Assembly (NCBI GenBank): GCA_042216335.1
Contig: JBDGTY010000023.1
Span: 8,390-44,427, forward strand
Source: Candidatus Nanohalobium sp.
GTDB taxonomy: Archaea; Nanohalarchaeota; Nanosalinia; Nanosalinales; Nanosalinaceae
Direction of reading: 5' to 3'
DNA length: 36,038 bases
Shown: piece by piece, positions 29,254-29,483 of the stretch
Numbering within the stretch: the stretch's first letter is position 1
Layout: the number at the start of each line of letters is the position of its first letter
Position numbers and translations under genes: made by a program
The notes under the pieces: generated by a model
Database searches by the model: none
The model's input: the letters and a program-made list of their open reading frames with translations, nothing else
What the model was told of the DNA's origin: nothing

Positions 29254-29483
29254 GGGTCCGTAGCTCAGCCTGGCAGAGCGCCGGCCTTTTACTCGCTTTG
29301 GTTCATCCCAGAAGATTTCGGGACTCGAGGCGTCAGCCGAGAGTGGAACCATAGTGATCGTGACTCGAAACTCCTTGGAGTTTCTGGGTCATAAGAAAAT
29401 CCTTTCGAGGATTTTCGAGAGTCCGAAGGGATTCGGACTAAGAAGTTAGCCGGTCGTCGCGGGTTCAAATCCCGCCGGACCCG
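29254..29483 (+). tRNA. tRNA-Lys(UUU) with a 156-nt intron at position 37/38; CCA not encoded
   Basis: Exon 1 (29254-29291) GGGTCCG TA GCTC AGCCTGGCA GAGC G CCGGC CT TTT A. Exon 2 (29448-29483) A GCCGG TCGTC GCGGG TTCAAAT CCCGC CGGACCC G. All four stems pair. Confidence 0.92.
29292..29447 (+). other. Structured tRNA intron (relaxed bulge-helix-bulge)
   Basis: C32-U35 (CUUU) pairs with intron GAAG (29442-29445), with 3-nt bulges UA|C and UU|A. The interior folds into five hairpins. Confidence 0.85.

Follow-up and report, generated by a model that had tools for sequence, protein, structure and literature searches.

We analysed a 36,038-nucleotide stretch of DNA from a salt-lake Candidatus Nanohalobium sp. 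(hereafter the window, which is part of contig JBDGTY010000023.1), in which a tRNA-Lys(UUU) gene is interrupted by a genuine and unusually long intron. An Rfam scan of the window returned a single match, to the tRNA family RF00005 at 29254-29483 of the plus strand (46.7 bits). The Rfam alignment places a 157-nt insertion after tRNA position 37, and aragorn, once allowed to call introns, reports a tRNA-Lys(ttt) with an intron of 156 nt at the canonical position 37/38, the same coordinates that a first-pass annotation had read from the letters alone. In its default mode, without the intron option, ARAGORN called no tRNA gene in the window; that long-intron genes of this kind escape default tRNA finders is a caution for annotators. 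About 124 of the 156 intron nucleotides (29320-29443) form a composite of three dispersed hairpin modules, which we call D1, XY and H5 (Table 1).

Table 1. Features of the tRNA-Lys(UUU) locus, in window positions, and copies of the XY doublet at start codons of the same genome (G000), as contig:positions.
Feature	Position	Strand	Basis
tRNA-Lys(UUU) gene including intron	29254..29483	+	Rfam RF00005, 46.7 bits; aragorn with intron option
5' exon, tRNA positions 1-37; anticodon TTT at 29288-29290	29254..29291	+	Rfam alignment, aragorn, sequence
Intron, 156 nt, canonical position 37/38	29292..29447	+	Rfam alignment, aragorn; fold -67.3 kcal/mol, z -5.64
3' exon	29448..29483	+	Rfam alignment, aragorn
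Bulge-helix-bulge, 5' half: anticodon stem 29281-29285, helix strand CUUU 29286-29289, bulge UA|C 29290-29292	29281..29292	+	constrained fold
Bulge-helix-bulge, 3' half: helix strand GAAG 29442-29445, bulge UU|A 29446-29448, anticodon stem 29449-29453	29442..29453	+	constrained fold
Three-way junction: P1 29293-29304/29346-29357 (5+6 bp, one U-U) with hairpins P2 and P3	29293..29357	+	best folds
Hairpin P2	29307-29322	+	best folds
Hairpin P3, tandem GA/GA internal loop	29323-29344	+	best folds
Hairpin with loop CUUG	29361-29391	+	best fold
Hairpin with loop UUCG	29395-29416	+	best fold
Hairpin with loop GGGA	29420-29439	+	best fold
D1 core, GGACUCGAG-[short hairpin]-CGAGAGUGGAAC; dispersed, sequence-conserved module	29321..29349	+	BLAST, 16 aligned copies
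XY doublet (hairpins 2+3), 57-nt indel unit with GA-repeat flanks; core 29366-29417	29362..29418	+	X3 contig, alignment A1, model R1
H5, hairpin 29420-29439 with CUAAG tail; right part of composite	29420..29443	+	composite alignment
XY doublet at start codon	C19:37947-38013	-	
XY doublet at start codon	C19:40231-40297	-	
XY doublet at start codon	C25:20243-20306	-	
XY doublet at start codon	C34:15877-15942	-	
XY doublet at start codon	C34:16226-16292	-	
XY doublet at start codon	C62:3631-3692	-	
XY doublet at start codon	C41:7906-7955	-	

The genome holding the window (G000; 1.02 Mb in 74 contigs, 96% complete) was compared with other metagenome-assembled genomes, three of which (G001, G002 and G003) belong to the same genus. 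Among the 33 tRNA genes parsed from the aragorn output for G000, the gene studied here is the only lysine gene with a UUU anticodon, so that, judging from gene copy number, the cell should depend on splicing of its intron. Introns were called in 22 of these 33 genes, and seven of the calls exceed 100 nt (Trp 213, Arg-UCG 178, Lys-UUU 156, Arg-GCG 137, Ser-UGA 120, Met 109 and a doubtful call of 186 nt). By way of comparison, a 2014 review gives a range of 11-129 nt for archaeal tRNA introns with medians of 12-25 nt (PMC4090602), and the tRNA figures given for two cultivated nanohaloarchaea list 15/39 and 4/38 intron-bearing genes (PMC10266531).

Forcing the precursor into a canonical bulge-helix-bulge (BHB) motif, with a 4-bp helix and two 3-nt bulges, costs 0.9 kcal/mol relative to the best fold (-108.2 vs -109.1 kcal/mol), and the predicted motif places the 5' splice site within the UA|C bulge and the 3' splice site within the UU|A bulge. 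Orthologous introns with unrelated interiors retain (A)GAAG or AAAG immediately before the 3' splice site, as the splice motif requires. The genome encodes the ligase RtcB (535.6 bits) and, at one locus, a 181-aa EndA with one N-terminal and one catalytic domain (PF02778 and PF01974), whose closest named relatives are Candidatus Nanohalobium and other Nanohaloarchaea metagenome assemblies at 85-88% identity. Single-unit EndAs with an extra loop are described in an earlier study from several DPANN lineages having much-disrupted tRNA genes (PMC5829648). In the splicing pathway that we envisage, the canonical BHB would form from the anticodon loop of the precursor together with the final 6 bases of the intron, the single-unit alpha-type EndA would cleave both 3-nt bulges, and RtcB would ligate the exons and, by analogy with other archaea, probably also circularise the excised intron as a by-product.

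The intron is highly structured. Taken alone, it folds in RNAfold to -67.3 kcal/mol, against a mean of -46.8 (sd 3.6) for shuffled versions, none of which is as stable (0/200; z = -5.64), and the whole precursor reaches -109.1 kcal/mol (z = -6.47). The first-pass annotation had listed the stems and loops of an almost fully paired intron and had pointed out that it lacks guide boxes; every listed element reappears in the best fold, and within 29292-29447 there are no matches to the C box RUGAUGA, the D box CUGA or, in addition, the ACA box, so the intron is no guide RNA of the tRNA-Trp type. It also belongs to no Rfam family, a match to which the annotation had named as evidence against an undescribed RNA; the only overlapping hits score 15.8-22.7 bits against gathering scores of 65.7-93.4, with E-values of 0.025-1.5, which is chance level. 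The CUUG, UUCG and GGGA tetraloops are likewise present as described, but the selection on RNA structure that had been read from them does not follow, as the loops range from 3 to 9 nt and vary in sequence, without conservation, across 17 aligned copies of the XY doublet.

At the Lys(UUU) site itself, introns prove to be changeable. A query with the precursor matched 40 of 41 genomes, and among the 30 loci kept aragorn called 28 tRNA-Lys(UUU) genes, seven of them intronless; the introns of the other 21 measure from 26 to ~258 nt. Among congeners, G000 and G002 carry the 156-nt intron, G001 has none, and G003 has an unrelated 58-nt intron of two hairpins. Introns of other tRNAs vary in the same way: judged from exon match coordinates, the Arg(GCG) intron measures 137, 71 and 177 nt in G000, G001 and G003, while the Arg(GCG) precursor of G002, intron included, is 87% identical to that of G000, and the Arg(UCG) intron measures 178, ~131, ~56 and 45 nt in G000, G001, G002 and G003. 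The cross-species comparison that the first-pass annotation had suggested for detecting modular gain or loss finds intron state varying even within the genus. The Lys(UUU) intron is not a conserved non-coding RNA (ncRNA), and the site is evolutionarily labile.

Several further features of these introns were observed. One recurrent type of ~57 nt, present in many introns of family f1, reads A-CCUCAAG[hairpin]GAGGA, GA-GAAG/GAAAA[hairpin]CUUC/UUUUC-GA, followed by the splice-motif strand; it occurs, for example, in G000 in Lys(CUU) (C41:13899-14030), Gly(UCC) (C58:17036-17164) and Leu(UAG) (C53:12259-12404) and in the Lys(UUU) gene of G003 (L028), and its second hairpin is bordered by GA..GA, possibly as tandem sheared pairs. 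The Lys(UUU) introns of families f3 and f4 (L034, L041, L042, L043, L053, L054, L055) have a 5'-proximal CUGA (or GAUGAG) and a 3'-proximal CGAUGAU, boxes that could form a K-turn or guide-like arrangement across the intron ends. The tRNA-Trp(CCA) gene of G000 (C53:22014-22300) has a 213-nt intron by aragorn, in which GAUGA/CUGA-type boxes can be read by eye, and modules of this intron are shared with the Val(GAC) and Thr(UGU) introns, where they stand at the 5' end.

The XY doublet has the look of a mobile unit. G000 contains 35 perfect hairpins with GAAA at the start of the 5' arm, compared with 1-5 in 20 block-shuffled genomes, and 18 of the 35 lie entirely outside stop-to-stop frames of at least 120 codons, though such frames make up 90% of G000. 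Many of them pair as doublets of the form C-GAAAnUC..GAnUUUC-UG / spacer / (C)A-GAAAAUC..GAUUUUC-G, and the whole unit is palindromic, with inverted repeats at its ends (CGAAA...UUUCUG / CAGAAA...UUUCG). A covariance model of the doublet (R1) accordingly matches both strands, and its 34 matches in G000 collapse to 21 loci because of this palindromy. At E <= 1e-4, R1 matched 29 of the 41 genomes, and the number of matches in a genome ranges from 0 to 52 (52 in G002, 39 in G008, 25 in G000, 20 in G009 and 9 in G001; none in G015, G018, G019 or G022). With 21 loci in the home genome and copies in 29/41 genomes, XY is a dispersed repeat in the manner of miniature inverted-repeat transposable elements (MITEs) and repetitive extragenic palindromic (REP) sequences.

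The doublet and D1 both bear marks of constraint on pairing. In an alignment of 17 doublets (A1), 93.9% of the stem cells are paired, against 87.5% after shuffling, a value reached in 0/500 shuffles; seven pairs change on both sides (1/500 shuffles), and at one position the pair is CG in 11 copies, AU in four and UA in two, with no mispairs. For D1, 16 aligned cores give 93.8% paired cells against 81.0% shuffled (0/500), and an inner pair occurs as CG in nine, GC in five and UA in one. Since the stems of both modules covary, these patterns indicate that it is the forming of hairpins as such that has been kept up, be it in RNA or in single-stranded DNA.

XY is directly seen to be a discrete insertion/deletion unit, first of all in the intron. 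In a metagenome run from another study (X3), a 152-nt contig (depth 10.2) with this intron joins 29361 to 29419 and so is without exactly 57 nt (29362-29418), with GA at both ends; it also lacks 6 nt at 29311 and carries a few substitutions. Filled and empty states with sharp boundaries are found at two start codons as well. The site at the L21e start codon is empty in G001, G003 and G009, where the sequence is ...CTAAAATGGC...; in G000 two (A)ATG enclose a doublet of 57 nt, and diverged doublets occupy the site in G002 and G013. The site at the next start codon, that of an Rpb4-like gene, is filled by a doublet in G000 and empty in G001, G003, G013 and G009, and in G002 it contains nothing beyond a short spacer of unrelated sequence.

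Altogether, 7 of the 21 XY loci in G000 sit exactly at start codons. The genes behind them encode A-ATPase subunits A and c, L39e, an Rpb4-like protein, L21e, L13 and one unnamed product. At most of these sites, an upstream Shine-Dalgarno/ATG opens a frame of 17-18 codons that runs through both hairpins to a stop abutting the true ATG, and a GGAGG or AGGUG motif lies within hairpin 2. The small coding frame was considered as the selected feature and rejected, on our reading, as the compensatory stem changes alter its residues non-conservatively. The start-codon doublets form a class of 5'-leader insertion of their own.

Further doublets of G000 deserve mention. At G000:C48:1239-1297 (L002/L148), a doublet directly follows a GAAAGUCC motif and closely precedes a weak match to archaeal RNase P RNA (RF00373; L002 1305-1644; 34 bits against a gathering score of 84), no RNase P RNA being found near this doublet at gathering score; the doublet may be part of an RNase P RNA that has been much altered. 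At G000:C40:3175-3235 and C35:17057-17125, a near-copy of the Arg(GCG) intron doublet with its linker lies just downstream of the tRNA-Val(GAC) call and before tRNA-Met, and the aragorn boundaries of the Val(GAC) intron may be wrong.

D1 behaves as a second dispersed module, conserved in sequence. Of 70 genomes of the order, 12 gave BLAST matches to it, none with more than four copies, and an H5-like hairpin usually comes next after it. Its copies lie in sense orientation in the G067 Thr(CGU), G007 Thr(GGU) and G005 Lys(CUU) introns, in antisense orientation in the Ser(UGA) introns of both G034 and G010 and in the G032 intron of Arg(GCG) (where, at locus L052, D1 is on the plus strand and the tRNA on the opposite one), and outside called tRNAs in G031, G033, G039 and G000:C11. 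The composite D1-XY-H5 aligns to the reverse complement of the G032 Arg(GCG) intron at 87/147 identical positions, against 56/108 for the forward-orientation control, and to an intergenic copy in G031 at 91/137. As the X3 variant amounts to D1-H5 minus XY, the doublet is nested in an older D1-H5 unit. The suggestion of the first-pass annotation that the intron might be an accreting selfish repeat is therefore supported: its modules occur in intergenic DNA and, in either orientation, in the introns of other tRNAs, a 57-nt unit comes and goes as an indel, and intron state differs within the genus.

We also observed, in the Arg(UCG) intron of G000, a D1 core that we read as itself split by a doublet-like insert. 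At five loci (L138 in G008:C54, L140 in G009:C1, L144 in G020:C1, L197 in G032:C8 and L202 in G033:C28), a degenerate second T-arm and 3' acceptor end lies downstream of an intact tRNA-Ser, -Pro or -Phe gene, with an XY or D1 module inserted or adjoining; these duplications look like a 'spare gene end' or attachment site.

The intron as a whole also appears to have travelled. The locus is syntenic between G000 and G002 and 73% identical across 3 kb; in 50-nt windows the flanking genes show 56-86% identity, and the adjacent intergenic DNA is barely alignable. The intron, by contrast with these flanks, is identical at 155 of 156 positions. The acceptor stems differ by two compensatory pairs, so that the identical tract spans tRNA positions ~6 to 68. 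In a further metagenome run (X2), a separate 4.6-kb contig joins G002-type flanks to this intron, which there has the private substitutions G29295A (pair kept), A29353C (pair broken) and T29358C, and G002-type flank ends are present in run X1, the probable source of G000. Contigs with this intron come from three runs of two studies, in addition to the second genome. Also present in these runs are Lys(UUU)-like genes whose intron measures 57 nt or starts in antisense H5-like sequence. Vertical descent with 99% conserved loops and linkers is hard to reconcile with such flanks. Recent lateral spread of the intron between diverged, co-occurring lineages seems the better account of these alignments, recombination through the conserved inner exons being the simplest route.

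The Y1 transposase family PF01797 was matched in 3 of the 41 genomes (intact in G002, with two stops in G001 and twice in G039), and exact-pattern scans of viral contigs found 0 stretches for D1 and 0 for XY. The intron does not resemble a homing-type mobile intron either: in its 156 nt, two frames contain stops and the third is open for at most 51 codons. At one locus of G002 (L186; G002:C11:13834-17184) with an IS200/IS605-type tnpA-tnpB pair, an XY-like doublet precedes tnpA by ~60 nt and another hairpin of this kind comes after tnpB; as it comes from this single locus, in which part of tnpB reads N, the link to IS200/IS605 is a lead only.

Taken together, these results make it likely that a genuine spliced tRNA intron is filled with selfish or neutral repeat DNA and contains no dedicated ncRNA gene. 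Under this interpretation, D1, XY and H5 would move or be copied at the DNA level, landing in other tRNA introns in either orientation, in intergenic DNA and beside tRNA 3' ends and, in the case of XY, at start codons. Introns would tolerate such modules because everything between the two bulges is discarded, and the whole 156-nt intron would in turn spread laterally, likely by recombination through conserved inner exon sequence. A more specific version of the model is offered tentatively, as plausible though short of probable: XY and D1-H5 would be nanohaloarchaeal miniature hairpin families that insert harmlessly, the start-codon copies bringing a ribosome-binding motif with them, and whole BHB introns would be exchanged by recombination between co-occurring species.

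Several points weigh against the repeat interpretation and the intron exchange that goes with it. No transposase was found in G000, which gave 0 matches to PF01797, the family of the cognate Y1 transposase that IS200/IS605 relatives would call for. The flanks of XY follow no single target-site rule, reading ATG..ATG at genes and GA..GA in the intron. The XY-less intron variant is a single 152-nt contig at a depth of ~10 in run X3. Covarying stems and a strongly conserved D1 would be explained as well by a bound protein or a function as by a mobility signal, and the 99% identity of the intron could in principle reflect strong selection instead of transfer. A chimeric join in the G002 assembly, made through conserved tRNA words, is a residual caveat, against which the X2 contig speaks. 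Finally, the intron boundaries that aragorn gives in relatives are approximate, and at L038, L050 and L054 they conflict with the exon matches.

One alternative is that the excised intron is a functional, stable and probably circular ncRNA, its hairpins binding a protein or serving as a sponge or chaperone and the tRNA gene acting as its expression vehicle. We regard this as unlikely. The very stable fold (z -5.64), the compensatory changes in the XY and D1 stems, the conservation of the D1 sequence in 12/70 genomes and the 155/156 identity of the intron between two diverged genomes are all what it would lead one to expect, and the tRNA-Trp intron that nests a box C/D guide, as outlined in the 2014 review (PMC4090602), provides a precedent. 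Such an RNA would, however, have to be dispensable to two other congeners, in which the intron is absent or replaced, and to the owners of the 7 intronless genes among 28 orthologues; it would have to function without 57 nt in the natural variant of run X3; and it would be assembled from modules that elsewhere lie antisense to their host tRNA or in intergenic DNA. Its loops are unconserved, and it has neither guide boxes nor an Rfam family.

Next in rank, and again improbable in our judgement, is the idea that the modules are not selfish and serve as cis-acting sites for a host RNA- or DNA-binding factor, for instance a regulator of translation or processing, recruited repeatedly to 5' leaders, tRNA introns and the RNase P region. 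The precise placement of 7/21 XY loci, behind a Shine-Dalgarno/ATG and directly ahead of the start codons of highly expressed genes, speaks for such a role, as do the second GGAGG/AGGUG in the hairpin-2 loop, the 17-18-codon upstream frame with its stop abutting the real ATG, and the covariation of the stems. Regulation of this sort is difficult to square with congeners whose same genes do without the element and with copy numbers of 0 to 52 matches per genome among close relatives, while the copy in the intron would be discarded by splicing. That the gene is instead a disabled pseudo-tRNA, or its long intron an assembly artefact, is scarcely credible: the default tRNA finder does miss it, and 156 nt exceeds the 11-129 nt range of the 2014 review (PMC4090602), but the cloverleaf is intact (46.7 bits) with a canonical splice motif, no other Lys(UUU) gene was found in G000, the same intron recurs in three runs of two studies and in a second genome, and several other tRNAs of G000 have introns of more than 100 nt.

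The locus bears on the origin, enlargement and movement of archaeal tRNA introns, as it shows, in closely related and co-occurring genomes, nested insertion in the form of a polymorphism, modules in both orientations in different tRNAs, and a near-identical intron across genomes that are ~73% identical. If modules are indeed mobile and introns exchanged, the locus would let one observe directly how archaeal tRNA introns grow, are replaced and spread. In the literature that we searched on archaeal MITEs and tRNA introns and on nanohaloarchaeal miniature inverted repeats, such repeats are undescribed; the papers closest to the subject give counts of intron-bearing tRNA genes (PMC10266531) and a typing of EndA (PMC5829648).

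MITEs, the REP sequences and bacterial interspersed mosaic elements (BIMEs) of bacteria, and palindrome-ended IS200/IS605 derivatives are short, non-coding repeats with hairpin ends, whose copy number differs among close relatives. XY resembles them in its many copies, its presence/absence polymorphism and its nesting, and departs from them in having no matching transposase in G000 and inconsistent flanking repeats. Insertion at start codons with an element-borne Shine-Dalgarno motif is, to our knowledge, not a known feature of these families.

Among tRNA introns, the closest general match is the canonical archaeal BHB intron, with which the Lys(UUU) intron shares its position at 37/38, the 4-bp helix with two 3-nt bulges, and a genome encoding EndA and RtcB. 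It differs in its length (156 nt against the 11-129 nt of PMC4090602), in a repeat-derived interior, and in that the helix inside the 5' bulge is an arm of a multi-branch junction instead of simply continuing. With the box C/D-guide intron of tRNA-Trp it has in common that it is a long, structured archaeal tRNA intron, but not the C, D or ACA boxes. In Thermoproteales, similar introns in different tRNA genes have been taken to show spread at the DNA level after speciation (Fujishima et al. 2010, as summarised in PMC4090602), by a transposition mechanism that the same summary of 2014 terms unknown. Our case is alike in having similar sequences common to different tRNA genes; unlike those introns as there portrayed, the shared units here are sub-intron modules that occur in either orientation and also beyond tRNA genes, start codons included; the host has a single alpha-type EndA in place of the Crenarchaeal heterotetramer, and its introns keep to the canonical site. 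For Asgard archaea, repeated lineage-specific gains of tRNA introns at splice-competent sites are reported, with the route of arrival left open (bioRxiv 10.64898/2026.10.13.758758). The frequent lineage-specific change of intron content at splice-competent sites is common to both systems; whereas that study reports no general copying or mobile-element route, in the nanohaloarchaea both repeat modules and the apparent transfer of a near-identical intron are visible.

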